Part shown: piece after piece, positions 23,480 to 56,582 of the stretch | How positions within the stretch are numbered: position 1 is the stretch's first letter | Layout of the letters: each line of letters begins with the position of its first letter | Origin: Escherichia phage REP5 | Length of the DNA: 64,000 nt | Sequence record: OQ174504.1 | Direction: 5' to 3' (one strand) | The notes under the pieces: generated by a model | Told to the model about the DNA's origin: nothing | Database searches by the model: none | Seen by the model: only the letters and a program-made list of their open reading frames with translations | Made by a program: the position numbers and the translations under genes

Positions 23480-23510
23480 ATTTAAGGATTCTCGTAAGAA
23501 CCCTTAGAAG

Positions 23511-23586
23511 TGGCAGCGGCATAAGGATTTGAACCTTAATAGGACAGCTTCAGAGACTGTTGCATTGCCAGTTATGCTATACCGCT
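23511..23586 (-). tRNA. tRNA-Gln (CUG)
   Basis: D-stem GCAT/ATGC, anticodon stem ACAGT/GCTGT, loop CTCTGAA, T-arm TAAGG-TTCAAAT-CCTTA. Confidence 0.55.
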
Positions 23587-23591
23587 AAATT

Positions 23592-23670
23592 TGGTACTCC
23601 ATATCGGATTCGAACCGATACATAACACAGATTTTAAGTCTGGCCTCTCTGCCAATTGGAGTAATGGAGC
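23592..23670 (-). tRNA. tRNA with anticodon UAA (Leu-type) but short variable arm
   Basis: Anticodon helix CAGA/TCTG with loop CTTAAAA; Leu-like D-arm CCAATTGGCAGAG; A73; T-arm ATCGG-TTCGAAT-CCGAT; no long extra arm. Confidence 0.45.
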
Positions 23671-23672
23671 AT

Positions 23673-23748
23673 TGGCGGGGGATGTTGGAATTGAACCAAC
23701 TTCTTCGATTTCAAAGACCGAGGTTTTAACCTTGTAAACTAATCCCCT
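23673..23748 (-). tRNA. tRNA-Gln (UUG)
   Basis: Anticodon stem TCGGT/ATCGA, loop CTTTGAA, T-arm GTTGG-TTCAATT-CCAAC. Confidence 0.5.
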
Positions 23749-23756
23749 TTAAATCT

Positions 23757-24314
23757 TTACTTTCTCAGTGGATGAATAAAGAATGCCAACATAACTCTTT
23801 CCCTTGAGAATGCTCTTTCTTCTGGGACAACGCTTTTTAGTTTCCATCCAATATAAATTCTCCAGTAAAACTGTTTACCAAAGACTTTAATTGATGGGAT
23901 AAAAGCGAATAATCCCCAAGCATTACTGTTCCACATTAGGAGATAACCAGTCTGATTATCTTCAGGGTCAGAACTTACGTTGATATTACCTTTCCACTTA
24001 GTAACATCTTTTACATCTCTTCCTAATACATGGTAAGAGAAGTTATAAGCTTTGTTTCTCCAGAGCCACCCAACTCTCTGCATATAGACACCAAGCTTAC
24101 CAATCTTTCTAATTTTAGCCCATCGTTTAACGTGACCTTCATCACCATCAATTGGGTTGTCATATGTCTCCATCCATCTGAAGCCGAAAGGTAAGTGTCC
24201 TTTCTTCTCACTGTAAAATGGAACTACGAAAGGTGCTAAGATAACTGCTAAGATTGCTGCAAATGGCTCTAACAAAGCTAATAAAATCCATGAAGCATAC
24301 TTCAAATATCTCAT
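23757..24314 (-). CDS. membrane protein embedded in tRNA cluster
   Basis: 185-aa ORF with hydrophobic N-terminus ILLALLEPFAAILAVILAPFVVPF. Confidence 0.4.
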   Translation of the reverse strand: MRYLKYASWILLALLEPFAAILAVILAPFVVPFYSEKKGHLPFGFRWMETYDNPIDGDEGHVKRWAKIRKIGKLGVYMQRVGWLWRNKAYNFSYHVLGRDVKDVTKWKGNINVSSDPEDNQTGYLLMWNSNAWGLFAFIPSIKVFGKQFYWRIYIGWKLKSVVPEERAFSRERVMLAFFIHPLRK

Positions 24315-24333
24315 CTAAATAGCCTCTTTAAAT

Positions 24334-24409
24334 TGGCGCAGGATAAGGGATTCGAACCCCTATTAACAGCTTCGTAGACTGTTGCTCTATCCATTTGAAC
24401 TAATCCTGC
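24334..24409 (-). tRNA. tRNA-Arg (ACG)
   Basis: Acceptor GCAGGAT/ATCCTGC, anticodon stem ACAGT/GCTGT, loop CTACGAA. Confidence 0.6.
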
Positions 24410-24414
24410 AAAAT

Positions 24415-24492
24415 TGGTGTTCCAAGACGGATTCGAACCGTCACTAGTACAAGGTTTGAGCTTGCATCCTCTGCCAATTGGGATACTGGAAC
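24415..24492 (-). tRNA. tRNA with anticodon CAA (Leu-type) but short variable arm
   Basis: Anticodon stem GCAAG/CTTGT, loop CTCAAAC; D-arm CCAATTGGCAGAGG; A73. Confidence 0.45.
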
Positions 24493-24493
24493 A

Positions 24494-24568
24494 TGGTACT
24501 CACTAAAGGACTTGAACCTTTTTCTTCATCTTGTAAGGGTGGTGTTTTACCATATAAACTAAGCGAGT
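24494..24568 (-). tRNA. tRNA-Val (UAC)-like, weak anticodon stem
   Basis: Loop CTTACAA; anticodon stem CCACC/GATGA has two C-A mismatches; acceptor and T-arm intact. Confidence 0.4.
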
Positions 24569-24571
24569 ATG

Positions 24572-24658
24572 AAAGAGGTCTGAAGTTGTGCCGCTAACTC
24601 AACTCCGTGGAATTTGTTACGGTCTTCAGTTGACACCAGCGGTCTTTCACTTGACCTC
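24572..24658 (-). ncRNA. tRNA-like structured element / possible pseudo-tRNA
   Basis: 7-bp terminal helix AGAGGTC/GACCTCT enclosing ~73 nt with internal hairpins but no canonical T-loop. Confidence 0.2.
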
Positions 24659-24663
24659 TGAAT

Positions 24664-24740
24664 TGGTGCTGCTCACAGGACTCGAACCCGCATTTCCATC
24701 CTTACAAGGGATGTGTAATAGCCAATTATACGAAAGCAGC
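24664..24740 (-). tRNA. tRNA-Thr (UGU)
   Basis: Anticodon stem CATCC/GGATG, loop CTTGTAA. Confidence 0.6.
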
Positions 24741-24747
24741 ATTAATT

Positions 24748-24822
24748 TGGAGCATCCAGAGGGAATCGAACCCTCAACCTCAGTTTGGAAGACTGTAATT
24801 TTCCCGTTTAAACTATGGATGC
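24748..24822 (-). tRNA. tRNA-Gly (UCC)
   Basis: Acceptor GCATCCA/TGGATGC, loop CTTCCAA. Confidence 0.6.
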
Positions 24823-24828
24823 ACTAAT

Positions 24829-24904
24829 TGGTGGAGAAGCAGGGAATTGAACCCTGTACTTAAGTTTGCAAAACTTATGTTTTAACCATGTAAACTACAT
24901 CCCC
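24829..24904 (-). tRNA. tRNA-Ala (UGC)
   Basis: Anticodon stem TAAGT/ACTTA, loop TTTGCAA; G3-U70 wobble pair present. Confidence 0.6.
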
Positions 24905-24910
24905 AATGTC

Positions 24911-24986
24911 TGGTACAGGTGGAGGGAATTGAACCCATCGTCTTACTGATTAAGAGTCAGCCGCATAACCATTTTGCTACACCTGC
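24911..24986 (-). tRNA. tRNA-Lys (CUU)
   Basis: Anticodon stem GCTGA/TCAGT, loop CTCTTAA. Confidence 0.5.
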
Positions 24987-24993
24987 ATTAATT

Positions 24994-25071
24994 TGGTAGG
25001 AGACAAGGGATTCGAACCCTCAAACATCTCGTTCTAAGCGAGATAGGTTTACCAATTACCGTCAATCTCCC
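24994..25071 (-). tRNA. tRNA with anticodon UAG (Leu-type) but short variable arm
   Basis: Anticodon stem TCTCG/CGAGA, loop CTTAGAA; D-arm GTAATTGGTAAAC; A73; 5-nt variable region. Confidence 0.45.
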
Positions 25072-25316
25072 ATTAAGTCTTTTTAGAGAACTTCTAAGAA
25101 CCTAAGCAACAAGGTTCCACAACAAGCTGTAATAACCTTAGAAGCCCTCTAAAAAGACCTAAAAAGGTCTTTGCATAGTCTTGTTTAATCCGGTGACTAG
25201 AACCTTTGGAGAGCTTGATATTATCTCTTCTCCGTGACACCTACTAGGTGTTTTATCAATGTGTACAACAATACACGCGGTATACCAAAGCAACATCCGA
25301 ATGAAGCTTGGCTTTA

Positions 25317-25406
25317 AATCTTATTAGGCGGTAAGTAAAGGAGTCGAACCCTCACCGTATCTCTACAGTGGCAACTGTTTTCAAGACAGTTTGGCTACCA
25401 TTAGCC
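25317..25406 (-). tRNA. tRNA-Ser (UGA), type II
   Basis: Anticodon stem ACTGT/ACAGT, loop CTTGAAA, ~20-nt variable arm, T-loop TTCGACT. Confidence 0.55.
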
Positions 25407-25429
25407 GCTACCTACCCCTAATAAGACTT

Positions 25430-25512
25430 TGGCATGGGACGGAGGAGTTGAACCCCTTTGAAACGGTGTTGGAAGCCGTTGCTCATGCCTTAGAGTCTTA
25501 ACATCGTCCCAT
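25430..25512 (-). tRNA. atypical tRNA-like gene (Gly-UCC-like loop with 2-nt expansion)
   Basis: Acceptor ATGGGAC/GTCCCAT with CCA; T-arm AGGGG-TTCAACT-CCTCC; anticodon helix ACGG/CCGT enclosing 9-nt loop CTTCCAACA. Confidence 0.3.
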
Positions 25513-25644
25513 ACTATAATTCGAAGCTTACCGTATTATCTCAACACTGTAAAGCCCCTTCTCAGATTATTTACATGTTCTGGAAAACATGAGATACAGA
25601 CCACCTCCCTACAGGAAGACCCGCTTAGGTCGTCTAAGTAATCT

Positions 25645-25721
25645 GCTAACTATTTGGCACACCCTACAGGATTCGAACCTGTAACTCAATGATTAGAAGT
25701 CATTTGCTCTGTCCAGTTGAA
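25645..25721 (-). tRNA. tRNA-Arg (UCU)
   Basis: Anticodon stem AATGA/TCATT, loop CTTCTAA. Confidence 0.6.
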
Positions 25722-25934
25722 CTAAGGGTGCATTAATCTTTAAAGACTCTCTTAGAAAGCCCTTAAAGATGCCCACCTTATTAATCATACCGTGGGCTAG
25801 TACGCCAAATTCTTTGATGAGGGATTGGAAGACCTCACTGGTGTTTAGCCTATCAAGCTACTGCCAGAAAAACATTGTCGTTTGCATTTATTTTAAATTT
25901 GCAAAATAGACGCTACGCAACGAAAACTAAGGTT

Positions 25935-25963
25935 ACTATAAAGTGGTCACATCTCAGTGTCAA
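25935..25963 (-). promoter_or_regulatory. sigma70-like promoter inside tRNA cluster
   Basis: Minus-strand TTGACA, 17-nt spacer, TATAGT; points leftward into a ~200-nt leader then tRNA-Arg(UCU). Confidence 0.4.
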
Positions 25964-25978
25964 CAACTTTATTGAAAT

Positions 25979-26054
25979 TGGTACTGTGAGAAGGATTCGA
26001 ACCTTCTGCCTTTCGGTTATCAGCCGAATGCACATCCATATGTGCTTTCACAGC
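25979..26054 (-). tRNA. tRNA-Ile (GAU)
   Basis: D-stem GCAC/GTGC, anticodon stem TTCGG/CCGAA, loop CTGATAA. Confidence 0.6.
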
Positions 26055-26056
26055 TT

Positions 26057-26133
26057 TGGAGGTTCAGATGGGAATCGAACCCACATTCATAGGGCTTATG
26101 AGACCCTTGCATTACCTTATCTGCGACTGAACC
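26057..26133 (-). tRNA. tRNA-Met (CAU)
   Basis: Acceptor GGTTCAG/CTGAACC, anticodon stem AGGGT/GCCCT, loop CTCATAA. Confidence 0.55.
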
Positions 26134-26137
26134 ATTT

Positions 26138-26213
26138 TGGTAGAAGTGGAGGGATTCGAACCCATCGCCTGTCAGATTAAAAGTCTGCCGCATCACCATT
26201 CTGCTACACTTCC
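26138..26213 (-). tRNA. tRNA-Lys (UUU)
   Basis: Anticodon helix GCAG/CTGA-type with loop CTTTTAA; T-loop TTCGAAT; CCA. Confidence 0.55.
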
Positions 26214-26217
26214 ATTA

Positions 26218-26361
26218 AATTATCTTTGTAGATAAGCTACCCAGACTTGCTTAAGGTCTGTAGCGATGTGCCTTGTTGGGTTTAAATCTAGAATTTACCC
26301 TTTCACCCTTTGTGGTCGCATACTCACAGGTAAGCTTAATAACTTATCTACAAAGATAATT
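26218..26361. repeat. 19-bp perfect inverted repeat (AATTATCTTTGTAGATAAG) flanking ~106 bp
   Basis: Left arm 26218-26236 is the exact reverse complement of right arm 26343-26361. Confidence 0.6.
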
Positions 26362-26400
26362 ACCAGACCGTTGTTTATCATCTTAAGTGCTACCATTACA

Positions 26401-26440
26401 CCAACTCGACATCTGCCGAGTGAAGGAATCGAACCTTCAC
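26401..26440 (-). pseudogene. tRNA remnant (3' half only)
   Basis: Intact T-arm GAAGG-TTCGATT-CCTTC and acceptor-like 3' strand, but no complementary 5' acceptor found upstream. Confidence 0.25.
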
Positions 26441-26474
26441 CTTTTCTTTACCGGAGAAATAGATTGTTTAAGTT

Positions 26475-26497
26475 TTGCTGTAAACGGTCTTCTGTAA
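26475..26497. repeat. tRNA-cluster repeat element, copy 1
   Basis: TTGCTGTAAACGGTCTTCTGTAAA. Confidence 0.55.
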
Positions 26498-26563
26498 ATT
26501 TGTTGAGCCAGACCAAGTTTTAAATTTTTCAAAATTAAATTGGCTTGAAATTTTCATACGTTC

Positions 26564-26586
26564 TTGCTGTATTTGGTCTTCTGCTC
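26564..26586. repeat. tRNA-cluster repeat element, copy 2 (diverged)
   Basis: TTGCTGTATTTGGTCTTCTGCTC. Confidence 0.45.
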
Positions 26587-26643
26587 CTTTAAAGAATACT
26601 CGTAAGAACTCTTTAAGGGAGGGGCTAAATAGCCCTCTCAAAA

Positions 26644-26729
26644 TTGGCGGCTACGATGAGACTTGAACTCACATCATCTCCCAATATCCTTTTACGTGGG
26701 AGTATTTTAACCAAATTAAACTACATAAC
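26644..26729 (-). tRNA. type II tRNA, anticodon unresolved (possibly degenerate)
   Basis: 86 nt; acceptor GGTTATG/CGTAGCC with CCA; T-arm GTGAG-TTCAAGT-CTCAT; Leu-like D-arm; anticodon region CACGTAAAA with only a 3-bp stem. Confidence 0.35.
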
Positions 26730-26734
26730 CTTTA

Positions 26735-26822
26735 TTGGTGTGCCGTGTAGGAGTCGAACCTACCGAGTCTCAATGACAAGGGATTTACAGTCCCCACCGC
26801 TACCATCTACGGGATAACGACA
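26735..26822 (-). tRNA. tRNA-Tyr (GUA), type II
   Basis: Anticodon stem GGGGA/TCCCT, loop CTGTAAA, long variable arm, T-arm GTAGG-TTCGACT-CCTAC, CCA. Confidence 0.55.
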
Positions 26823-26830
26823 CATTTAAA

Positions 26831-26906
26831 TTTGCGGTTAGTCAGGGATTCGAACCCTGTGCCATTCGCTTAACAGGCGACCGCACATACCTTATGTGCT
26901 TCCTAA
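26831..26906 (-). tRNA. tRNA-Asn (GUU)
   Basis: D-stem GCAC/GTGC, anticodon stem GTCGC/GCGAA (one mismatch), loop CTGTTAA. Confidence 0.55.
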
Positions 26907-26966
26907 CCATATTTAGTATTACCAGACCGTATCTTTCAATTTTTTCCGCTAAAAATTTGATAAGTG

Positions 26967-26990
26967 TTGCTGTAAACGGTCTTCTGTAAA
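26967..26990. repeat. tRNA-cluster repeat element, copy 3
   Basis: TTGCTGTAAACGGTCTTCTGTAAA, directly abutting the 3' end of the tRNA at 26992. Confidence 0.55.
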
Positions 26991-26991
26991 A

Positions 26992-27068
26992 TTGGAGGCG
27001 GGTGCAGGAGTCGAACCTGCCGATACCATGCTAATGAGACATGTGAGACGCCCTTTCTCTATACCCGC
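26992..27068 (-). tRNA. second CAU-anticodon tRNA (Met, fMet or Ile2)
   Basis: D-stem GAGA/TCTC, anticodon stem CATGT/GCATG, loop CTCATTA; 1-72 mismatch. Confidence 0.5.
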
Positions 27069-27133
27069 AATTCTTAATGACCAGACCAAATCTCTTCTTT
27101 GTCCGATTTACCTTCAGATGAATAAGATTAAGT

Positions 27134-27157
27134 TTGCTGTAATTGGTCTTCTGTCAA
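27134..27157. repeat. tRNA-cluster repeat element, copy 4
   Basis: TTGCTGTAATTGGTCTTCTGTCAA, abutting the 3' end of tRNA-Glu. Confidence 0.5.
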
Positions 27158-27160
27158 AAC

Positions 27161-27238
27161 TGGCGTTCCAGAAGGGATTTGAACCCTCAGATATCCACTT
27201 TGAAAGAGTGGTGACTATACCATTTTGTCTACTGGAAC
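27161..27238 (-). tRNA. tRNA-Glu (UUC)
   Basis: Acceptor GTTCCAG/CTGGAAC, anticodon stem CCACT/AGTGG, loop CTTTCAA. Confidence 0.6.
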
Positions 27239-27245
27239 ATTAATT

Positions 27246-27325
27246 TGGTCTCCGTTGAAGGATTTGAACCCTCGACCCCTTGCTCCCAAAGCAAGTGCTG
27301 CTAAACCAAACTGAGCTAAACGGAG
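27246..27325 (-). tRNA. tRNA-Pro (UGG)
   Basis: Anticodon stem CTTGC/GCAAG, loop TTTGGGA, T-arm GAGGG-TTCAAAT-CCTTC, CCA. Confidence 0.55.
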
Positions 27326-40724: not shown

Positions 40725-41129
40725 TTAAAGTTCTGCATAAATTGCATCGCAGATATTACGGAAATCGTGATTTGGCAAATTACGCTGCAACCAAGTGGCG
40801 AAAAAGTCAGCGATTGCATAATTAGCATCATACTCAACGGATAGCCATACTTTCACGGCGAATCTAAACATTTTTAAATCAAGCTCTTTATTCATTACCT
40901 TAGATTTGCCCAACATGTCGGCCATTTCGTATTGTGCACCGTCTAGCGTGATACCTGCTGCAACGTCAGCCAGTGAGTTTTTTACGCTTTCAACGTCTAA
41001 GATAACACTTTGAATCTTCCCAATAATGTTGTGCAATGTTTCATCTGGTGCTGATGACGTAATAACATTAATCCGGTTAACGGTCAAACGTGCTTTTAAG
41101 ATTGATAATTCACGGTTATTAATAGCCAT
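40725..41129 (-). CDS. hypothetical protein
   Basis: 134-aa ORF, starts MAIN. Confidence 0.45.
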   Translation of the reverse strand: MAINNRELSILKARLTVNRINVITSSAPDETLHNIIGKIQSVILDVESVKNSLADVAAGITLDGAQYEMADMLGKSKVMNKELDLKMFRFAVKVWLSVEYDANYAIADFFATWLQRNLPNHDFRNICDAIYAEL

Positions 41130-41214
41130 TTTTGAATCTCCAATTTAGGATTTAGTGGTAAAGCTCTTTATCTGTGGATTAAGGTAACAACTTTTAAACC
41201 CCTTGTAAAGTACT
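41130..41214 (-). promoter_or_regulatory. repeated upstream cassette, copy 6 (class B variant)
   Basis: CCTAAATTGGAGATTCAAAA-ATG plus AAAGAGCTTTACCACTAAATCC block. Confidence 0.45.
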
Positions 41215-41487
41215 TTACACTAAATGCAGCTTTTTACCTTTTACCATGATGTAACTTGATGCGCTATTGCTGTAAACATCCTGATAAATTCTGCGCAAAC
41301 GTCCTTCGTAGTATACTTTCCAACTAGTTGGAATCTTTTTACCGTATCCGGTAGCAGTTTTTTGGAATCCTGCAAGTTGCCAATCCAAAATATGCTGTTC
41401 AGCTTGTAAATCCTCGAAGTGCATTACACCGTTCACGTAGTGGCGTAGGGTTACGTTTAAGGTGCGACCGTTGTTAGTAGTATGCAT
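41215..41487 (-). CDS. hypothetical small protein
   Basis: 90-aa ORF. Confidence 0.4.
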   Translation of the reverse strand: MHTTNNGRTLNVTLRHYVNGVMHFEDLQAEQHILDWQLAGFQKTATGYGKKIPTSWKVYYEGRLRRIYQDVYSNSASSYIMVKGKKLHLV

Positions 41488-41573
41488 TTTGAATCTCCTA
41501 GTTTAAGAGCTTTATGTAGTGGGAGGTGATGACCTCCCGTTGATTAGTAATTTACTTGTTTTTAAAATCAAAA
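41488..41573 (-). promoter_or_regulatory. repeated upstream cassette, copy 7 (class A variant)
   Basis: RBS core plus perfect hairpin GGGAGGTCATCACCTCCC. Confidence 0.45.
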
Positions 41574-41906
41574 TCAAGAAAAATTTTTTCGTTTGTTCAG
41601 TTCTTGAACAATTACAGCGTAGTAGTCTTTTAAGTCACTGATATTTAAAGCATTTATCAGGGAATTATAATCATCGACTAACTGAAAATCCTCTTTGAAG
41701 ATGTCACTAATCTGGTAGGTTTTCGCTTTAAATCTGAAGCTCATTTCTAGCCGCTTTATTTGCTCATCACTGAGGCGCCCTAGAAAGCTTTCTACAAGGT
41801 TATTGCTAACCTGCTGTGTGATTGCCTTACTTGCCAGATTATAGGCTTTATATGCCTTATATAGTGCCAGAATGGCTATGATTGCGGTGATGCCAGTCAT
41901 TAGCAT
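41574..41906 (-). CDS. hypothetical membrane-anchored protein
   Basis: 110-aa ORF with hydrophobic N-terminus; overlaps upstream gene (no own cassette). Confidence 0.4.
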   Translation of the reverse strand: MLMTGITAIIAILALYKAYKAYNLASKAITQQVSNNLVESFLGRLSDEQIKRLEMSFRFKAKTYQISDIFKEDFQLVDDYNSLINALNISDLKDYYAVIVQELNKRKNFS

Positions 41907-42196
41907 GGTGTTACCTCTTTTTGTGAGATTTTGCCATTTACAGTTATCTCATAGGATTCTAATAAGTCACTTTTAGACTTTACTGGACTTTTAAAAGTAT
42001 TATCGTAAATATTGACTTGCAATACAGGTTTTTTATACTCCCTGCAACTATTCCATAAACAAATCACTACACGACGGCCTTTTATTTTGCCGTGTAACCA
42101 TTCCATAACATCATGATTATTTCTTGATGTTTCAATGAAATCAATTTTGTTGAGTAACTTGCTTAGATTTTCACGGACTTTATTTGATAATTTCAT
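41900..42196 (-). CDS. hypothetical small protein
   Basis: 98-aa ORF with cassette-type RBS. Confidence 0.4.
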   Translation of the reverse strand: MKLSNKVRENLSKLLNKIDFIETSRNNHDVMEWLHGKIKGRRVVICLWNSCREYKKPVLQVNIYDNTFKSPVKSKSDLLESYEITVNGKISQKEVTPC

Positions 42197-42284
42197 TTTA
42201 GAATCTCCAGTTTAGGATTTAGTGGTAAAGCTCTTTATCTGGGGCTTAAGATATCAGCTTTTAAGCCCCCTGTAAAGTACTTTA
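42197..42284 (-). promoter_or_regulatory. repeated upstream cassette, copy 8 (class B)
   Basis: RBS core plus hairpin GGGGCTTAAAAGCTGATATCTTAAGCCCC. Confidence 0.5.
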
Positions 42285-42542
42285 TCAGATTAAATTGCCA
42301 GTTAATGATAAGTGCATTTTATAGCCTTGCTTAGTGAATACGTTCACTTTACCGAGTGTTTCCACACCTTTAAAAAGGTTGTTTGAACTATGTTTTAAGA
42401 TTAAACGTTTATCAACCTTTACGCCCCATCTTACAGCAGATTTTTTCCCGTTGTCAATCACTTTCCCGCATAACTTTTTAGCCATAACGCGAGCGTCATC
42501 ACGAGTTTTTGCAGAAATTACAACGTTTTTGATAATAGCCAT
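42285..42542 (-). CDS. hypothetical small basic protein
   Basis: 85-aa ORF, starts MAII. Confidence 0.4.
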   Translation of the reverse strand: MAIIKNVVISAKTRDDARVMAKKLCGKVIDNGKKSAVRWGVKVDKRLILKHSSNNLFKGVETLGKVNVFTKQGYKMHLSLTGNLI

Positions 42543-42630
42543 TTTTGAATCTCCAATTTAGGATTTAGTGGTAAAGCTCTTTATCTGGGGCTTACTTTAT
42601 CGAACTATAAGCCCCTTGTAAAGTACTTTA
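42543..42630 (-). promoter_or_regulatory. repeated upstream cassette, copy 9 (class B)
   Basis: Near-identical to copy 4 (hairpin GGGGCTTATAGTTCGATAAAGTAAGCCCC). Confidence 0.5.
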
Positions 42631-43011
42631 TTAGTTAATTTTGAAAATTGTCACATAACCATCACTGCCGATTATTTGAGACACTCCAGCTTTTTCCACT
42701 TGATAGCCCATATTTTCAAGATGATAAACAGCATCATCGTAACCATATGCGCCGCCCTGATAACGTCTCTTATTGCATTTTATCAGGTTTTTACCACGTC
42801 CAGCAAGCGCATTCAGTACGGCTTTTTCACTTGAAAGAGTACCGTCTAACATGGTTGCCGTGTAATGGTTAATCCTGTTACCATTTACGTCATATTTAAA
42901 ATTGAATGCGTGAACAACAATCAATTTGCCGTTAAATTTTTCATCAAGTGACTTCTCCAGTGCGTTGCGGAAGTTGTCTTTGTTGATGAATTTCGGTGCA
43001 CGATAAGCCAT
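42631..43011 (-). CDS. hypothetical protein
   Basis: 126-aa ORF. Confidence 0.45.
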   Translation of the reverse strand: MAYRAPKFINKDNFRNALEKSLDEKFNGKLIVVHAFNFKYDVNGNRINHYTATMLDGTLSSEKAVLNALAGRGKNLIKCNKRRYQGGAYGYDDAVYHLENMGYQVEKAGVSQIIGSDGYVTIFKIN

Positions 43012-43100
43012 TTTTGAATCTCCTAGTTTAAGGTTAGTTAATAAAGCTCTTTATCTGGGGCTTAAGATACCAACTTTTAAGCCCCCTGTAAAGTACTTTA
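43012..43100 (-). promoter_or_regulatory. repeated upstream cassette, copy 10 (class B)
   Basis: RBS core plus hairpin GGGGCTTAAAAGTTGGTATCTTAAGCCCC. Confidence 0.5.
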
Positions 43101-43307
43101 TTAGATTTCGTAGTAGTAAACTGCTGTCTGTCTTATGTGCTTTCTTGTGATTCTCGTAAGGTAGCAATTAGAATTTATAGCCGTTTCTACATGGTTGCAA
43201 TAGTCAGTTTCTGATATCCTAGTCCATACGTCACAAATTTTCATGTAGAAACGTTTTACATCTGTATCAACGTTGGTTGTAACCATCAATTCACGGCAGT
43301 AAGTCAT
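43101..43307 (-). CDS. hypothetical small Cys-rich protein
   Basis: 68-aa ORF, first gene of the cluster. Confidence 0.4.
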   Translation of the reverse strand: MTYCRELMVTTNVDTDVKRFYMKICDVWTRISETDYCNHVETAINSNCYLTRITRKHIRQTAVYYYEI

Positions 43308-43348
43308 TTTTCAGTTCTCCAGTTTAGGAAGTGGGCTTGTCGCCCCGT

Positions 43349-43377
43349 CTGATGCAGATACTATAAAAACCCGTTCA
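43349..43377 (-). promoter_or_regulatory. sigma70-like promoter for the small-gene cluster
   Basis: Minus-strand TTGACT, 17-nt spacer, TAGTAT, with AT-rich upstream tract; ~40 nt upstream of first gene. Confidence 0.35.
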
Positions 43378-43565
43378 AGGAGTCAATAAAAATTTTAAAA
43401 ATATTTTTGGCAAAAATGTAATGAAACGGGCGCACGCGACTACCACAAAACAGAACTACAATCAAGAATTATTTTTCAATCCGCTACAAATTTTTATGTT
43501 GACTTTTCTTTTCAGATGTGGTAGCCTCGTGAGAAATGGCGACATCCCCACCTACACCCACCTAC

Positions 43566-43742
43566 CTGCACAATTCTAAAATGATTTTTCTTGCCCGACC
43601 TGATTTTTATCTGCACGTTTTGAAAATGAAAAAGCTCTTTGGAGATTACCTGCACAGTTTGAAAATGAATTTTCTCTTTGGAGTTCAAAATTCTCTCTAC
43701 AGATTTCTCTATAGAAATCTACCTGCACAATCCTGAAATGAA
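43566..43742. repeat. four ~20-bp direct repeats CTGCAC(A/G)NTTNTGAAAATGA(A/T)
   Basis: Copies at 43566, 43611, 43650, 43723; CTCTTTGGAG also recurs twice between them. Confidence 0.6.
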
Positions 43743-43814
43743 AAAGCCCTCCTTACCTGAAAAATTTACCAGATAAGAAAGGCTTAACCTATTGTGAATA
43801 TCCTACAGAGTTTC

Positions 43815-44600
43815 TTAGTTATTTGCGTCTAAGAAGGTAACTTCTGGTGAAGAGAAGATTGCCCCAATATCCTCATCAGTTCTTGCATAGATGTAGGCAT
43901 CTGCATCACTGCCAAATGTTACTGCAATCCTGTGATTGCTCTTCGACAGGTGGGTAACTAGAGCGTTACTTAGAGACATCTTTTCAACCGGAGGGTTACT
44001 TTGATGTACCTTACCTTTTCTTCGTCTGAAGAGGGTAACTGCATTATCTGAGAACACTGCTACGCCTGCAAAGTATTCTGGTTCACAGTAGTTCTTCCAA
44101 CCTGAGTGTAACTCATTATACATTTTTGCTTCATAGACATACAGATAAACATCTACACTCTTCATTGCCTGATTAATGATAACTGTGACAGCTTGAGGGT
44201 CAAGTCCACCGATACCTGCGCCAATCATAGGTAACCCAACTTTCTTCAACTGATTAACTTCACAGTATCTGTTAAGTTGCTTCAAAGATGACTCTAAAGC
44301 ACTGTAACGGGCATCTTTACCAGTCTTAAGCTGAGTGTAAAGATTAGCTATACGACCTTGTTTTAAACGCGCTACAGAGAAATTACCTAGTAAATTTTCA
44401 CAGGGTTTGTGGCCTATACCACCTGCATACAGATAAACTTCTGTATCGGTCTCATATGCTTTTGGGTAAAGTTTAGAAATCTTAGCAGCGATACCTGCAC
44501 CCATTAAGTTCATACAGTTGCAACCGTGACCAATGATATCAAACTTACCCTTATCAAATGCGGAGAAGATATCCCCATTGATGATTTTTACAATACCCAT
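43815..44600 (-). CDS. macro-domain (ADP-ribose-binding/processing) protein
   Basis: 261-aa ORF; N-terminal IVKIINGDIFSAF..DIIGHGCNCMNLMGAGIAAKI resembles macro-domain P-loop region. Confidence 0.5.
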   Translation of the reverse strand: MGIVKIINGDIFSAFDKGKFDIIGHGCNCMNLMGAGIAAKISKLYPKAYETDTEVYLYAGGIGHKPCENLLGNFSVARLKQGRIANLYTQLKTGKDARYSALESSLKQLNRYCEVNQLKKVGLPMIGAGIGGLDPQAVTVIINQAMKSVDVYLYVYEAKMYNELHSGWKNYCEPEYFAGVAVFSDNAVTLFRRRKGKVHQSNPPVEKMSLSNALVTHLSKSNHRIAVTFGSDADAYIYARTDEDIGAIFSSPEVTFLDANN

Positions 44601-44801
44601 TTAGCATCTCTCCCAAGATTCTTTATCTTCTGAAGGTTTTACACGTTGCCCTTCGTGGTCTACCCAGATACATCCACAACCTTCACAAATTACTGGCATT
44701 GCATAGCCAGCTTTAAAGTCATCTTCAGTGATAAGACCTTTTAAGTCACCTGTATCACGTCCGAACATTTCAATAGAACAGTCTTTGCAGAAGTCAGCCA
44801 T
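44601..44801 (-). CDS. zinc-ribbon-like small protein
   Basis: 66-aa ORF with CKDC ... CEGCGC cysteine pairs. Confidence 0.4.
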   Translation of the reverse strand: MADFCKDCSIEMFGRDTGDLKGLITEDDFKAGYAMPVICEGCGCIWVDHEGQRVKPSEDKESWERC

Positions 44802-44813
44802 ATAATATATACC

Positions 44814-45041
44814 TTATAGTTCAGTTTCTCGTAATTCTTTACCTTCATCATAGAAGCATTTATAGAATGTGTCTATAGAGATTCTGGCAAAGGTAAGGTC
44901 TTCAAAGTATTCTTCTGGAGTTATCCCTGTAAAGCTAAAACTACCGAGACTGTAAAATGGTATCACTGTGTCGTGACTCACGAAAACACATGCTGACGTG
45001 ACTTCTCCAGTATCTTTGTCAATTACCTCTAGAGCTTTCAT
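44814..45041 (-). CDS. hypothetical small protein
   Basis: 75-aa ORF. Confidence 0.35.
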   Translation of the reverse strand: MKALEVIDKDTGEVTSACVFVSHDTVIPFYSLGSFSFTGITPEEYFEDLTFARISIDTFYKCFYDEGKELRETEL

Positions 45042-45342
45042 AGCTTACCTTTTCGGTTAGTTCATATAAATCAACATGCTCAATACTGTCAATGTTGATA
45101 TCAATCTTTTTGAAACGCTCCATCACTTCGTTGTCAGTCATCCATATCAGACACCAATGATTCTGGATGGATTCTTCAAGAAGGTCAACACAATCTTTAA
45201 AGGTTTTTGTATCACTTCTTGTCCCTACTACTGCGATTGTTCCATATAGCCACTTACCATTGCCATAGGTTACCTGTGCTACACCAACTTCTTTATCGTT
45301 CTCATAGTAAACGGCTACAAAGTCTCTTCCATTAATCTGCAT
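45019..45342 (-). CDS. hypothetical protein
   Basis: 107-aa ORF. Confidence 0.4.
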   Translation of the reverse strand: MQINGRDFVAVYYENDKEVGVAQVTYGNGKWLYGTIAVVGTRSDTKTFKDCVDLLEESIQNHWCLIWMTDNEVMERFKKIDINIDSIEHVDLYELTEKVSYESSRGN

Positions 45343-45344
45343 AG

Positions 45345-45614
45345 TTACTTCCTCGTTTTTAGAACTGCTAAGATTTCTTTAGAGTCTGGTAAGAACCATG
45401 TGTAGTGATTCTCTTTGATTTCTGGATGAGTGTCAACCTTTATTTTGCACTCTTTACCAACATGCTTAAGCTGTGCTGTGACACCTTGCATAAAGATATG
45501 ACACATCACATTATCCATAACGGTTGGTGAAAAATCAAACCGCATATAAGTTTCTTTTGGTCGTGGTAGCAGTAAGTACCCTTCTACATAGAAAGTGTCT
45601 TCATTCTCTGTCAT
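45345..45614 (-). CDS. hypothetical protein
   Basis: 89-aa ORF. Confidence 0.4.
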   Translation of the reverse strand: MTENEDTFYVEGYLLLPRPKETYMRFDFSPTVMDNVMCHIFMQGVTAQLKHVGKECKIKVDTHPEIKENHYTWFLPDSKEILAVLKTRK

Positions 45615-45880
45615 TGCTGTTTGTTTCCTAATAAAATCATATCAATAAGGTTATTAGCTTTGATTGTGCACTGGTAAAAACCATCACGATAAAACTCAAG
45701 GGCTGCTGCTACATCACTGCCTGTGCTCCCTTTGATAGTATACCGTGATTCTTCTTGAGTGTACTTATCACTCTCACTTACTTGGGAGTTTTTGAATGTA
45801 CTGTTCACTTTGTTCGTTGAACACCCTGACATAATTATCAGTAACACAAACATTATAAAATTCTGGCTTAGTTTTTTCAT
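45611..45880 (-). CDS. lipoprotein, o-spanin-like
   Basis: 89-aa ORF; signal peptide with lipobox-like IIMSGC; start overlaps 3' end of upstream membrane-protein gene in another frame. Confidence 0.35.
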   Translation of the reverse strand: MKKLSQNFIMFVLLIIMSGCSTNKVNSTFKNSQVSESDKYTQEESRYTIKGSTGSDVAAALEFYRDGFYQCTIKANNLIDMILLGNKQQ

Positions 45881-46121
45881 ATGTTAGTACCTCTTTTGTA
45901 TGCTTATTCTTAGCAAGCACATCTTTCAAATCATTTTTGTAATTGGTGCTCAGTGTGACTAAACCTTCCTGATAAGCATCTTTAGCAACACTTATTAGCT
46001 TCTCATTATTTAGCTCAGCTTCAGCAACTTGATAGTCTCTGTAAGAGTATCCTCCCCAGACACCTGCTCCAACTAAGAAAACAATTATGAAAGTAGCTTG
46101 ACAAAACTCTTTAAATGTCAT
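45774..46121 (-). CDS. membrane-anchored protein, i-spanin-like
   Basis: 115-aa ORF; N-terminal TM FIIVFLVGAGVWGGYSY then charged helical region; RBS AGGAG. Confidence 0.4.
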   Translation of the reverse strand: MTFKEFCQATFIIVFLVGAGVWGGYSYRDYQVAEAELNNEKLISVAKDAYQEGLVTLSTNYKNDLKDVLAKNKHTKEVLTYEKTKPEFYNVCVTDNYVRVFNEQSEQYIQKLPSK

Positions 46122-46168: not shown

Positions 46169-46981
46169 TTATTCTTGACTGTAATAGTTGACAAGTGAAA
46201 TCGCTTGATTCATCAACAACTTATCAGCCTGTGCTCCGCGACCAGCTTGTAATGCCAGTTGGTATACCTCTGTAACATATTTGTTAGACATACCTTCACA
46301 GTAGTCATTATAGTCTTCCCAAAAGGAAAATGCAGCATCACCATATAGGCGTAGTGTAATTAACATTGCTGCACGAATCCCAGAAGAATATTTCCGTTTT
46401 GCGTTTACTACACCTTTAAGCTGTACTTCAAGAGAATCAATTTGTTCCAGCTCATTTTTAAAGTCGTTAAGATATTTAACTGTTTCAGTGTTAGATACTT
46501 GTTGTACACCGTAGTATGCAGCAACATACTTAATAGCAGTTGCCCAAGATGCTTTCATCAGTTCTGACTCTGGGTTGAAAGAAATCATCTTCATATTTCC
46601 GTAATAAACTTCTGAAGGTTTTTCTCTTGCTAACTCAGAGTCAAAATGAGTGTACAAATCTGTGACATCCAATATGGAGTTCACATGGTATATAACTACA
46701 ATCAAGTTTTCTGGTCGTGTCAGGTTACCAACTTTCCATGCCTCTCGACGTGAGTGCCCATCAATGATGAACAGTGAACTGCCGAACTTAGCCACATGGA
46801 CTACTGTTTGGTCTGGTGATACGTCACCATTAAGGTGTTTACTTTTCAGACGCTTAAGTGTATTTCGTTGACGAGGGTTTTCTTTGTAACGTTTTTCATT
46901 AAGAAAATCCTCGACACTGATAATCTTAGTGTGAATTTTAACAACCTTGCCATTCAGTGCTACATTGATGCTGTTTGCCAT
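46169..46981 (-). CDS. ParB-like N-terminal domain protein
   Basis: 270-aa ORF; KENPRQR (box-I-like) and IIDGHSRREAW (GxxRxxA-like) motifs. Confidence 0.5.
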   Translation of the reverse strand: MANSINVALNGKVVKIHTKIISVEDFLNEKRYKENPRQRNTLKRLKSKHLNGDVSPDQTVVHVAKFGSSLFIIDGHSRREAWKVGNLTRPENLIVVIYHVNSILDVTDLYTHFDSELAREKPSEVYYGNMKMISFNPESELMKASWATAIKYVAAYYGVQQVSNTETVKYLNDFKNELEQIDSLEVQLKGVVNAKRKYSSGIRAAMLITLRLYGDAAFSFWEDYNDYCEGMSNKYVTEVYQLALQAGRGAQADKLLMNQAISLVNYYSQE

Positions 46982-46992
46982 AACTTGATACC

Positions 46993-47877
46993 TTAGTTGT
47001 GGATAATTACTTCGTTAATATCTTTGCTTCTCTGTGCATGTATTGTGTATGAATGGCTAACCTCTGTCAAGTTAAAATTTTCAGGAATTAGTTTTGCCCA
47101 TCCATCCCACTGAGAGTTTGACATCAAAACTTTAGAGCCTAACTCCCCCCAAGAAATCATATCTTCGCATAATTTTACAGACATCTCAATGTCAAACTTT
47201 GCACCATATTTCTGGTTGGTGTTGATATACGGGGGGTCACAGTAAATAACTGTGCCTTCTCCATGTTTTATGTCAACCCTGTCATAAGGTTCACTGCTAA
47301 GTATTACCCTCTCATCAGTGATAAAACTGTAGAACGCGGATAGTGATTCTTTAGTTTTTGTGAAGAAAATCTCTTCTTCCAGTAAATACCCACAAGGTGT
47401 TGCATAGTGACCTTTCATCTCTTTAGTAGTCTGCCATACACCACCAAAACTTAGTTTTTGAAGGAAAAACTGTCTGGCGTAGTACCTGTAGTCATATGCT
47501 CCCTCTTCACCAAGCAAAAGAAGTTCCTCTCTTACACTGTAATACATTTTATAGCGTAGACGGTTATGACGCTGGCCTTTCACGGCATACTCTTCCTGCA
47601 TAGGTAAGGCTAAGTACCTCTTTGACAAGTACTCAAATTCTTCCATGAAGTTCTCATAGTCATCTCTGAAAGTTGTGTAAAGACCTATAATATGTTTATT
47701 TATCTCATTAATAAACACTTTTGCCTCTGGATATCTGTTATAAGCCCATATAGCTACTGAACCACCACCTGAAAACAGGTCATAGAAGTTTGTACAGTTG
47801 TCTGGAAAGACACCTAAACGCTCATACTCTTTTAATATTCTTGTTTTACCACCAAGATATTTGAACATCGGCTTCAT
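46993..47877 (-). CDS. dam: DNA N6-adenine methyltransferase (Dam-like)
   Basis: 294-aa ORF; motif I FSGGGSV and motif IV DPPY. Confidence 0.75.
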   Translation of the reverse strand: MKPMFKYLGGKTRILKEYERLGVFPDNCTNFYDLFSGGGSVAIWAYNRYPEAKVFINEINKHIIGLYTTFRDDYENFMEEFEYLSKRYLALPMQEEYAVKGQRHNRLRYKMYYSVREELLLLGEEGAYDYRYYARQFFLQKLSFGGVWQTTKEMKGHYATPCGYLLEEEIFFTKTKESLSAFYSFITDERVILSSEPYDRVDIKHGEGTVIYCDPPYINTNQKYGAKFDIEMSVKLCEDMISWGELGSKVLMSNSQWDGWAKLIPENFNLTEVSHSYTIHAQRSKDINEVIIHN

Positions 47878-53855: not shown

Positions 53856-55637
53856 TTAAAGCTGCTTGTCAATATTATTTCGAATATCACCAAGAGTTGT
53901 GTAGCCGAACTGCTCAGAGTCGCTAAAGACTAGACGTAAAGCACAAGCTGGATGTTCAAGTGCATCTGCAAAGCTCTGGAACCCATAGCCATCTACAGCT
54001 TTCAGATTTTCACCATCCCACATAGGTGCTACACCACCAAAAGCAGACTTCTTAACACCGCTATCTGTTTTAGGGTCTTTTGCAAGCATAATCTCTTTAC
54101 CACCAATGCTTGCAAGAGTTGCTTTGACAGCAAATGCAAAGGTATCACGAGTCATGTACTGGTAAGTGTAAGAACCCACACCAAACACTACGTTAGAGCT
54201 TGCAAAACCCATTTCATACAAACGCTTCAGGATTTCGTTTGCACGTTCCAACGTGATAGAGTCACCATAAATAAGGCCAATGTGTTCATCCAGTACCTTA
54301 AAACCTTTAGAGTTGATAGTCCCTCCAAAGATGTTATACAAGGTCTTAATAGCCCCATCAATCTCTGCTACAGGACGTGTTACAACGTTTGCAGAACCAA
54401 CCATATAAGCGTTTTTCAACATCACTGTATCAGCAACTTCAAAGTCTTCTCTGTCAACAACCATTTCGTAGCCTTCTGACAGTAGCCATCCAGCAATACC
54501 ATAATTGATGTTTTCAAGCTTCATGTTCAGGACGGTGCTCAGCATTGTATCACTAGCTTCCAGCTTGCTAAGATGTTCGTAATAAGCCTTTTTAGCACAC
54601 TCTAAATGGATTGCTTTGTATCCTGTGACAATATGTACAGGGTCTCCAGAGTCAGGACGAATTACCAGTTTACCATCACGTTCCATAATCTCTTTACGGA
54701 GTTCTGGTAATATAACTGATACAGTTCTCCAGAAGTTATAAGTATCTGAAACAACACTTGCAATACCAGTTGGGTAAGTTTCTGTTAAGAAACGACGGAA
54801 GGTTTGTAACTCACCTTTAAAACGTCTTTCTTCTTCAATCAACTCATTACCACCTTCCCAAGCAATGTTTGCACACATTACAGAGTGTTCAGTGGCTGGT
54901 ACAGAGCTACCAATATCAGAGATTGGGTAGGACTGTCCATAGATTCGTTTAGCCGTGTATACAGCAGGGAAGCTATCAGTCCCTTTAAAGCTGGTTAAGT
55001 GACCTACAGCATTAAATGCGTCATCAGTAAAGCCAGACATACCACGCATAGCAAAGTCATGGCACTGATAAGGCAAATGTAAGTCATTGTCACAAGTAAG
55101 GTCAGACCACTTCTTACAAATACGTTTGTAGTGCAATGCAATAGTTGCAATGGTACAAGCCTTCCAAATCTCAGCAGAGAAAGCATCTTCCAGATAACCT
55201 GCTACCCAATGGAAACCTGAAACAGTGTTCTGGAAGACAATCATTGGTACACGCATCGGAACAACTGTACCTTCTTCTACAGCGTATACTTCAACTGGTA
55301 GATAACCTAAGTCGTGAAGTGCTTCCCAATGCTCTCGACCGATAGCATCTTTACCTAGAACACCATTCATGACTTCTAAGATTTCGTCAACGGCTTCTTT
55401 TTTATCACGTTCAAAGAAAGTGGCGTTCCAGTGGTCTATCAAGTAATCTTTAACAAAACGTTGAATACCAAAAGCTACTACACCGTCAATTGCTAAAGGA
55501 CTGTTAAACCATTTATCACTACGTGGTGTCAGGTTCAACATAAGATATTGCGTAGCATCTGGATACTGATATATATGTGATGCCTTGTAAGCATCTGCAT
55601 TAAGACCTGCTGGTACTGCATAAAGTGATTTAGTCAT
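53856..55637 (-). CDS. nadV: nicotinamide phosphoribosyltransferase family protein (NadV/NAMPT-like; possibly a NARP1 Namat)
   Basis: 593-aa ORF; size and sequence character of NAMPT family (by recall); directly downstream of Prs-like gene. Confidence 0.7.
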   Translation of the reverse strand: MTKSLYAVPAGLNADAYKASHIYQYPDATQYLMLNLTPRSDKWFNSPLAIDGVVAFGIQRFVKDYLIDHWNATFFERDKKEAVDEILEVMNGVLGKDAIGREHWEALHDLGYLPVEVYAVEEGTVVPMRVPMIVFQNTVSGFHWVAGYLEDAFSAEIWKACTIATIALHYKRICKKWSDLTCDNDLHLPYQCHDFAMRGMSGFTDDAFNAVGHLTSFKGTDSFPAVYTAKRIYGQSYPISDIGSSVPATEHSVMCANIAWEGGNELIEEERRFKGELQTFRRFLTETYPTGIASVVSDTYNFWRTVSVILPELRKEIMERDGKLVIRPDSGDPVHIVTGYKAIHLECAKKAYYEHLSKLEASDTMLSTVLNMKLENINYGIAGWLLSEGYEMVVDREDFEVADTVMLKNAYMVGSANVVTRPVAEIDGAIKTLYNIFGGTINSKGFKVLDEHIGLIYGDSITLERANEILKRLYEMGFASSNVVFGVGSYTYQYMTRDTFAFAVKATLASIGGKEIMLAKDPKTDSGVKKSAFGGVAPMWDGENLKAVDGYGFQSFADALEHPACALRLVFSDSEQFGYTTLGDIRNNIDKQL

Positions 55638-55682: not shown

Positions 55683-56582
55683 TCAATCAAGGTTTGCTAC
55701 AGTAACTTGACTATAATGTGTTAAGCTACGGTCTTTAGCTTCTCCTAAAGAGTTTGTAGTGTAGATGTGGTCAATACCATTGTCAAGTAAGTTTTCAACA
55801 CCTTTAGAGAAAATACCATGAGTTACATAGAGTTCCACACGTTTTGCACCTGCTTCACGTAGGTGTTTAGCTGCCTCTACGAAGGTTCGACCACCATCAC
55901 AGATATCATCAAGAATCATAACAGTTTTATCTGTCAAATCAACATCATCAAGGATTCGCATACCAGTAATTTCACCAGTCTTAAGGTTACGTACTTTAGA
56001 CATTGTGATATATGGTTTATCCACCTCTTTAGCAGTCTCTGCAATCTTCTTAGAAGCACCTGCATCTGGGGCTACTAAGTAATCAACCAGTGGGTCATTT
56101 GCATAGTGGACTGCAATTTCCTTTTGAGAAATACTCTGGAAGCAGTTAAACAGGTTATCTGATACATAACTGTGAGGGTCAACGGCACAGACTGCATCAA
56201 AACCCATTGCATTAACCTGTTGTGCAAACACTTTCAAAGCTGCTGCATCACCTTTAAACATGTGACGGTCATAACGTGCATTTGGCAAATAGTAAAAGAT
56301 AGCAGTCTTCATAGCAAACTTATGAGGTACTAAATCATCAATTGCCTCTTTAGCAAGTGCCACAGCAAATAATGTGTCCTTGTCATAACCTTTCACAATC
56401 ATAATCACATTGTTGATAGACGATGCTGCATAAGCAGTAAAATCAACAAGCTCTTGTGAAAAATGTCCACCAATCTCACCAGAAGGGAATTGGATGATGT
56501 TAAACTCTTCTTCATGAGTTCCTTTAGTCGGTGAATGAACTGTAACACGGATAGATGTTTTCATAGTTTCTCTCTTAGTCAA
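55683..56582 (-). CDS. prs: ribose-phosphate pyrophosphokinase family protein (Prs-like; possibly a NARP1 Adps)
   Basis: 299-aa ORF; PRPP-binding loop ILDDICDGGRT. Confidence 0.75.
   Translation of the reverse strand: MTKRETMKTSIRVTVHSPTKGTHEEEFNIIQFPSGEIGGHFSQELVDFTAYAASSINNVIMIVKGYDKDTLFAVALAKEAIDDLVPHKFAMKTAIFYYLPNARYDRHMFKGDAAALKVFAQQVNAMGFDAVCAVDPHSYVSDNLFNCFQSISQKEIAVHYANDPLVDYLVAPDAGASKKIAETAKEVDKPYITMSKVRNLKTGEITGMRILDDVDLTDKTVMILDDICDGGRTFVEAAKHLREAGAKRVELYVTHGIFSKGVENLLDNGIDHIYTTNSLGEAKDRSLTHYSQVTVANLD

Follow-up and report, generated by a model that had tools for sequence, protein, structure and literature searches.

The 64,000-nucleotide window analysed here is from Escherichia phage REP5 (OQ174504.1), a Felixounavirus (Felix-O1-like), and the gene under study encodes a two-domain macro protein of 261 amino acids (aa) on the reverse strand. 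Over positions 43000–46000 the window is 99.6% identical to Escherichia phage REP7, 99.4% identical to REP6 and 92–94% identical to approximately 200 further Felix-O1-like phages. The product of this open reading frame (ORF) is identical to the REP6 'phosphatase' WBY53489.1 and matches phrog_335, likewise named 'phosphatase' (E 8e-111). The ORF is not a chance one: 257 phage records match it over at least 80% of the protein length, and its macro part has a ratio of nonsynonymous to synonymous substitution rates (dN/dS) of approximately 0.04 within Felixounavirus. GenBank records already label the macro domain, with the names 'phosphatase', 'macro domain-containing protein' and 'O-acetyl-ADP-ribose deacetylase', and its recognition is not new; a literature search on Felix O1 and macro domains returned nothing on the Felix-type protein. 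What is new is the placement of the protein next to the anti-DarT factor macrodomain AdfM of phage T4 rather than Adpp or DarG, a loop-length signature separating two functional types, a fast-evolving C-terminal domain that is specific to the Ounavirinae and has no detectable relative, and the dimorphism of the locus. The features are collected in Table 1.

Table 1. Coordinates of the macro gene, its domains and motifs, and related features of the window
Feature	Position	Strand	Basis
Two-domain macro protein ORF, ATG to stop, 261 aa + stop	43815..44600	(-)	ORF list
Macro domain, residues 1-157	44130..44600	(-)	Pfam, Foldseek, BLASTP to Tk.4, dN/dS
H25-G-C-N28-C...M33-G-A-G-I-A38, N-terminal family motif and phosphate-binding GxG loop	44487..44528	(-)	Alignment
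N86-L-Y-T-Q90 strand end, then 10-residue loop Q90-Y99, at the TARG1 K84/DarG K80 catalytic-loop position	44304..44345	(-)	Alignment
P124-M-I-G-A-G-I-G-G-L-D134, second ADP-ribose-binding loop	44199..44231	(-)	Alignment
Linker helix, residues 158-167	44100..44129	(-)	DSSP on AF2 model
C-terminal domain, residues 168-261, six or seven beta-strands and one helix, Ounavirinae only	43818..44099	(-)	
Shine-Dalgarno-like GGGAGAG, 7 nt 5' of the ATG, within the 3' end of the preceding 66-aa ORF	44608..44614	(-)	Read from sequence
Terminator-like hairpin, 17 pairs, then T-run, 30 nt past the stop codon	43744..43785	(-)	Consensus scan, pattern match only
Allelic replacement, breakpoint inside the macro gene	44458 to ~43629; 8143-8934 of metagenomic contig L006		
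Namat-like nicotinamide phosphoribosyltransferase (NAMPT)	53856-55637	(-)	ORFs, NCBIfam PRK09198, REP6 annotation
Adps-like Prs	55683-56582	(-)	ORFs, NCBIfam ribP_PPkin, REP6 annotation
Near-identical ~88-nt cassettes	43012-43100, 42543-42630, 42197-42284, 41130-41214	(-)	

The first-pass annotation of this DNA had proposed an N-terminal macro domain from a GDIF...DIIGHGCNCMNLMGAGIAAKI signature, which corresponds to residues 9–41 of the 261-aa ORF, and the domain is borne out by both profile and fold. The Pfam Macro profile (PF01661) aligns with residues 25–141 at 32.8 bits against a cut-off of 22 (E 7e-8, profile positions 2–117 of 118). The structure prediction and comparison to known macro domains that had been recommended were performed with AlphaFold2 (AF2) and Foldseek, and the full-length model (predicted local distance difference test, pLDDT, 84.9; predicted TM-score, pTM, 0.84) exhibits the three-layer alpha/beta/alpha macro fold. 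The best Foldseek match is TARG1 (4j5r, E 1e-8, TM-score 0.79, normalised to target length), with further matches to the DarG macro domains of T. aquaticus (5m3e) and M. tuberculosis (5m3i), to Poa1p (6lfr), to nsP3 and to alphavirus and coronavirus macro domains. Foldseek assigned a probability of 1.00 to the TARG1, DarG, nsP3 and Poa1p macro domains, and 210 PDB matches were obtained at E <= 0.001. Sequence searches of the PDB also match TARG1/OARD1, the DarG macrodomains and Poa1p, and the sole PADLOC and NCBIfam matches of the protein are DarG models that align to the macro part alone. The strong purifying selection on the macro part fits an active enzyme.

Judged from the alignment, the invariant motifs define a phage Poa1p-like macro family. 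Across 19 two-domain relatives, residues H25, G26, N28, C29, M33, G34, A35, G36 and A38 are invariant and C27 and I37 nearly so; the counterparts of this segment are HGCNC...MGSGVA in T4 Tk.4 and HSCNC...WGGGIA in Poa1p. The NLYTQ strand end is likewise invariant among the two-domain relatives. In the second ADP-ribose-binding loop, which aligns with PRIGCGLDRLQ of TARG1, the invariant residues are P124, G127-A128-G129-I130, G132, L133 and D134. The K84/D125 dyad of TARG1 is not kept, with Gln90 aligned to K84 and Gly131 to D125, and a conserved Asp134 lies three residues downstream. The column of the catalytic Lys (TARG1 K84, DarG K80) is occupied by Gln throughout the Tk.4/Adpp family, and the chemistry is therefore not of the lysine-based TARG1 type.

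Two phage members of this family have been linked to bacterial defences by experiment. On a DarTG2 host, HIDEN-SEQ singled out the T4 gene tk.4 as its only hit, and a clean tk.4 knockout was sensitised to DarTG2, the gene being named adfM for anti-DarT factor macrodomain (bioRxiv 10.1101/2025.11.20.689424); the T4 match obtained here was confirmed as tk.4 by gene order. Adpp of Vibrio phage Gary is a macro protein encoded within the operon of the NAD+ reconstitution pathway NARP1; the purified protein dephosphorylates ADP-ribose-1''-phosphate (ADPR-1''P) to ADP-ribose (ADPR), and the three-gene operon overcomes aRES (bioRxiv 10.64898/2026.01.28.702374). Among the reference sequences compared directly by BLASTP, T4 Tk.4 is the top scorer (83 bits, 34–35% identity, E 2e-24, residues 3–157), followed by the NARP1-adjacent macro protein of JG004 (74 bits) and by Gary Adpp (53 bits, 27% identity, E 5e-13). 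Uncharacterised phage relatives, such as those of Kolesnikvirus, outscore T4 Tk.4. Both Tk.4 and the REP5 protein are phage-encoded Poa1p-like macro proteins found among early or accessory genes, with identical HGCNC and NLYTQ motifs, a common PxIGAGIG, a Gln at the TARG1 K84 position and a loop of 10 residues. They differ in that Tk.4 is a single domain of 155 aa, whereas the REP5 protein has an additional C-terminal domain of approximately 95 aa, an 8-residue insertion after helix 1 and GGLDP in place of the conserved GGxW, and in that T4 has no NARP1 nearby. With Gary Adpp and Poa1p (PDB 6LFQ) the protein has the H-x-C-N-C, MGxGIA, N-x-Y-x-Q and PxIGxG motifs in common, and with Gary the possession of Adps and Namat partners; it differs by the shorter loop described below, by TQ and HGC instead of GQ and HQC and by the extra C-terminal domain, and from Gary Adpp by the position of its gene outside the NARP1 operon.

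The loop that follows the NxYxQ strand adjoins the ribose 1'' position, where K84 of TARG1 sits. It is 10 residues long in the Ounavirinae proteins (QLKTGKDARY in the REP5 protein), in T4 Tk.4 (QFQPGPNFEY) and its T4-like relatives, and in TARG1. The loop measures 12 residues in DarG, 17 in Gary Adpp, 17 in yeast Poa1p (sequence verified against 6LFQ) and 14–17 in the 11 distinct NARP1-adjacent macro proteins, Gary included, of Table S1 of the Adpp paper. Poa1p and Gary Adpp, whose ADPR-1''P phosphatase activity has been proven biochemically, thus both have the 17-residue form. The long-loop signature (13–17 residues, covering Poa1p and the NARP1-adjacent macro proteins) was derived in this analysis and is not an established criterion. 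In a set of 64 distinct homologs from IMG/VR that have a single domain, homologs of Adps or Namat were present within 10 kb of 1 of the 31 short-loop proteins versus 9 of the 33 long-loop proteins (Fisher p = 0.013). For telling AdfM-like from Adpp-like proteins, the loop indel is more informative than BLAST.

DarG (5M31, 5M3E, 5M3I) and TARG1/OARD1 (4J5R) provide the best structural matches (TM-scores of 0.75–0.80, normalised to target length), and in DarG, too, a second domain comes after an N-terminal macro domain. The REP5 protein differs in having Gln90 for the catalytic Lys, in the lack of an adjacent DarT and in a C-terminal domain with no match to a PDB chain. Of the DarG models, NCBIfam NF048014 aligns only over positions 4–153 of 338 with 50.7 bits against a cut-off of 250, and PADLOC PDLC02990 over positions 17–147 of 329, leaving out the DarT-binding C-terminal part. 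The phage PhiKZ protein gp104, also named AdfM, counters DarTG2; it is of the DarG-like kind, with the catalytic Lys retained (PMC13309987). It is a phage macro protein as well, but it is single-domain and belongs to another macro lineage (25% identity, 26.6 bits). The name AdfM therefore covers two non-orthologous phage macro proteins with little similarity, the DarG-like PhiKZ gp104 with a Lys and the Poa1p-like T4 Tk.4 with a Gln.

The C-terminal extension, which had been put at some 90 aa by the first-pass annotation, is a real domain of approximately 90–100 aa that is predicted to be folded (pLDDT 81–89 over residues ~168–261 of the AF2 model) and is under purifying selection (omega approximately 0.3). 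With 261 aa and two domains, the protein departs from the stand-alone AdfM layout of about 150 aa. No Pfam family matches the C-terminal domain, it has no structural similarity to PDB chains, and Foldseek against BFVD returned nothing beyond its own orthologs. A phmmer search of 1.8 billion representatives found no relatives beyond its own family, and a profile search of 5.8 billion proteins recovered only its own orthologs. It is present in 246 records of the phage collection, and the members listed are all Ounavirinae or unclassified Felix-like phages. Kolesnikvirus encodes a two-domain ortholog of 260 aa, more distant two-domain relatives are found in syntenic metagenomic phage contigs, and profile-profile comparison shows the homology of the divergent C-terminal domains (probability 96%). 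None of the 66 homologs from outside the Ounavirinae has a C-terminal extension of at least 90 aa. In the predicted model, the domain is apparently an orphan new fold.

The two domains evolve at different rates. Mean pairwise identity is 58% for the macro domain and 30% for the C-terminal domain, the latter being lower in 171 of 171 pairs, and dN/dS is 0.04 versus 0.28 as a ratio of means and 0.03 versus 0.30 as a median of pairs. The C-terminal domain evolves approximately 7–10 times faster than the macro domain. This selection pattern and the two-domain layout of DarG suggest a targeting or partner-binding role for the C-terminal domain. Two more specific assignments were considered. A basic DNA-binding module is not supported, as the isoelectric point of the domain ranges from 4.7 to 9.6 across homologs and its charge is not conserved. 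A DarG-like DarT-binding domain is not supported either, with the DarG hidden Markov models aligning to the macro domain only and no PDB match for the C-terminal part.

The macro locus is dimorphic within Felixounavirus. A metagenomic Felixounavirus contig (L006) is 93–95% identical to the window on both flanks of the macro gene, yet the match breaks off 143 nt inside the gene and is restored only on its downstream side (Table 1). The product of this second allele, P0009, is 42% identical overall to the REP5 protein. In the phage collection the second type is represented by 13 Felixounavirus records that are at least 95% identical among themselves, and the first type by approximately 200, with no intermediates. 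Carriers of the second type include BPS17L1, Si3, finno and ECML-1 (GenBank). The presence of two deeply diverged alleles in genomes that are otherwise 93–95% identical fits an arms-race locus.

The first-pass annotation had also referred to an NAD+ module in this phage, which is specifically the NARP1 pair Adps and Namat, approximately 9 kb upstream of the macro gene. The NARP1 pathway is defined in bioRxiv 10.1101/2024.02.11.579819, and the adjacent genes annotated as 'ribose-phosphate pyrophosphokinase' and 'nicotinamide phosphoribosyltransferase' show the NARP1 layout. The co-directional order on the reverse strand is the NARP1-like genes, rIIA, rIIB, pnk, the spanins, small ORFs and finally the macro gene. 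Since the pair lies approximately 9.3 kb and at least 17 genes upstream on the same strand, the macro gene is not part of the NARP1 operon, and it falls outside the definition used in the search of the Adpp paper, which places Adpp within two genes of Adps and Namat. The pair and the macro gene have the same synteny in Felixounavirus and Kolesnikvirus. Presence of NARP1 was considered as a discriminator between functional types and is uninformative, as both NARP1 and the macro gene are present in every Ounavirinae genome checked. The ORFs neighbouring the macro gene are small phage ORFs with no Pfam match, and no darT toxin gene is adjacent.

The macro gene had been described as the head of an accessory block. 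This holds for the direction of transcription, which runs from high to low coordinates on the reverse strand. However, a terminator-like hairpin and 500 bp of intergenic DNA lie between the gene and the small accessory ORFs that follow at its 3' side. The gene is better described as the last of the rIIA-rIIB-pnk-spanin cluster.

Several possible functions were weighed against what is established here for the protein, namely its fold and family, the signatures of its motifs and loop, its domain architecture, its distribution and its pattern of selection. The earlier suggestion that the protein removes ADP-ribosyl marks or breaks down ADP-ribose derivatives fits the experiments of 2025–2026 on Tk.4/AdfM and Gary Adpp. 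The favoured though still tentative reading is that of an anti-defence ADP-ribosyl hydrolase, Poa1p-like and of the T4 Tk.4 (AdfM) type, acting on DNA modified by DarT2. The macro domain would bind the ADP-ribose moiety through two glycine-rich loops, MGAGIA and IGAGIGG, and would then cleave the bond at ribose C1''. The likeliest substrate would be the ADP-ribose that the host toxin DarT2 attaches to thymidine where the phage DNA is single-stranded; its cleavage would restore a replicable template and free ADP-ribose, which the NARP1 enzymes of the phage may recycle into NAD+. The C-terminal domain of approximately 95 aa, Ounavirinae-specific and under weaker constraint, may direct the enzyme to a partner or substrate, such as the toxin, a component of the replisome or DNA, and take no part in catalysis. 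In favour of an AdfM-type assignment are the match in fold to TARG1 and DarG, the top score and common motifs of T4 Tk.4 together with its genetic link to DarTG2, the 10-residue loop and its rarity near NARP1 genes, the tree topology given below, the distance of the gene from Adps and Namat, the strong purifying selection on the macro part and the two diverged alleles. Several observations count against it. T4 Tk.4 itself scores 85 bits with a NARP1-adjacent macro protein of an Acinetobacter phage, and by sequence and BLAST the Tk.4-like and Adpp-like proteins form one family with no clean split. Loop length does not strictly mark a DNA substrate, since the loop of DarG has 12 residues. The REP5 protein reads GGLDP where the GGDW motif has its conserved Trp, and it lacks the catalytic Lys on which DarG, TARG1 and the PhiKZ-type AdfM rely. 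A neighbour-joining (NJ) tree places a monophyletic Ounavirinae clade beside the T4-like clade, but over 150 bootstrap replicates the monophyly reaches 79% and the sister relation a weak 27–47%; given this weak bootstrap support, more weight is placed on the loop indel and the gene context. The evidence on T4 Tk.4 is purely genetic. NARP1 accompanies the macro gene in all Ounavirinae checked, a pattern that suits an Adpp role equally well.

That role, in which the protein would be an Adpp-type phosphatase converting ADPR-1''P produced by RES-domain NAD+ phosphorylases, as in aRES defence and RES toxins, into ADPR for NARP1 (a dispersed NARP1-AP), is less likely but a live rival, and it may coexist with an AdfM-type activity in one enzyme. 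It draws on membership in the same Poa1p-like family as Gary Adpp, with JG004 scoring higher still, and on the published ADPR-1''P activity of Gary Adpp and the escape from aRES conferred by its operon. The phage encodes both Adps and Namat on the strand of the macro gene, a NARP1-feeding role keeps its place among the candidates because the two loci are found together, in conserved synteny, across Felixounavirus and Kolesnikvirus, and aRES systems are present in E. coli, Klebsiella and Enterobacter (bioRxiv 10.64898/2026.01.28.702374); the public annotation of the protein is 'phosphatase'. Set against these points are the distance of approximately 9.3 kb from NARP1, past rIIA/rIIB, pnk and the spanins, the absence of Escherichia phages from the supplementary tables of the Adpp paper (bioRxiv 10.64898/2026.01.28.702374), the lack of the 13–17-residue loop of Poa1p and the NARP1-adjacent macro proteins examined, the extra domain that is found in no Adpp, and the occurrence of short-loop relatives such as T4 Tk.4 in phages with no NARP1 nearby. 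Another ADP-ribose conjugate would be a still less probable substrate, be it a cyclic or histidine-linked ADPR of Thoeris type, ADP-ribosylated RNA as in CmdTAC-like systems, proteins or O-acetyl-ADPR. The macro superfamily as a whole acts on all of these, a comparative genomics survey argued for soluble ADPR derivatives as the main targets of macro domains in phages (PMC9503650), and RyDEP is a precedent for an ADPR-releasing enzyme that feeds NARP1 (bioRxiv 10.64898/2026.05.28.727677). No characterised member of the phage Poa1p-like family has such an activity, however, the closest ones acting against DarTG2 and aRES, and the name O-acetyl-ADP-ribose deacetylase in some GenBank records was transferred automatically from OARD1/TARG1. 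A role in regulating the phage's own ADP-ribosylation, as the eraser for an ADP-ribosyltransferase that the phage encodes, has been proposed for T4 Alt/ModA/ModB and is highly improbable here: macro and ADP-ribosyltransferase genes frequently co-occur in myoviruses (PMC9503650), but none of the latter is annotated in the near-identical REP6 genome, a statement limited to annotation in a genome with many hypothetical ORFs.

A further reading, itself improbable, is that the protein is a convergent two-part mimic of an antitoxin. The conserved macro domain, which would remove ADP-ribose, would be combined with a fast-evolving domain that binds DarT2 or an aRES-type NADase directly, in the manner in which the unrelated C-terminal domain of DarG binds DarT. 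The diverged alleles would then track toxin variants, and ADP-ribose released from DNA would return to NAD+ through NARP1. If this were true, the reversal of DNA ADP-ribosylation would be linked to NAD+ reconstitution.

Phage macro domains have only recently been tied to defences, AdfM to DarTG2 and Adpp to aRES, and the REP5 gene stands between both. An AdfM-like sequence and loop in a phage with NARP1 provides a natural test of whether one Poa1p-like enzyme could serve both the cleaning of DNA and the supply of ADPR. The length of the loop (10 versus 13–17 residues) is a testable predictor of substrate class over thousands of phage macro proteins, and the C-terminal domain is a candidate for a module that targets a toxin or a substrate. 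Felixounaviruses are widely used for therapy and biocontrol of E. coli and Salmonella, and the set of defences that the macro gene may neutralise bears on the prediction of host range.

Upstream of the macro gene, its ATG is abutted by the stop codon of a 66-aa ORF (44601–44801, reverse strand, phrog_2210) with a CxxC...CxxC zinc ribbon. A distant relative (L004) has a 63-aa CxxC...CxxC ORF at this position that is not homologous, and no CxxC...CxxC ORF is present upstream of the macro gene in relative L005 or in Kolesnikvirus. The zinc-ribbon ORF was therefore rejected as a conserved partner. Further upstream, a segment of 1.7 kb on the reverse strand (46169–47877) is absent from REP6 and is found in HMD-P8 and in distant relatives. 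It encodes a 270-aa ORF (phrog_2615) and a D12-class (Dam-like) N6-adenine DNA methyltransferase (Pfam PF02086, E 2e-23). Elsewhere in the window, 25 tRNA genes are clustered on the reverse strand at 22397–27325 with two small ORFs interrupting them. The REP6 annotation adds odd tRNA-like features at 26414–26544 and 26645–26730, where ARAGORN makes no calls in the window.

Within the 500-bp intergenic region after the macro gene, four direct repeats of 29–38 nt (TACCTGCACAnTTTGAAAATGA...CTCTTTGGAG) are located at 43563–43756. They occur nowhere else in the window, the core motif giving 3 matches against 0.01 expected, and an Rfam scan of the repeats gave no meaningful match. Beyond this region, four small accessory ORFs (40725–43420, reverse strand) are each preceded by a near-identical cassette of approximately 88 nt (Table 1), and each therefore has its own copy of one promoter/operator/leader module. 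A fifth spacer (41488–41573) has only the 3' part of the cassette in common. The order of elements in the cassette is TAAAGTAC, TTTACA (-35), GGGGGCTTAAAAGTTGnTATCTT (-10), AAGCCCC, a common 5' leader, GGAG and the ATG, with an inverted repeat that brackets the -10 element.

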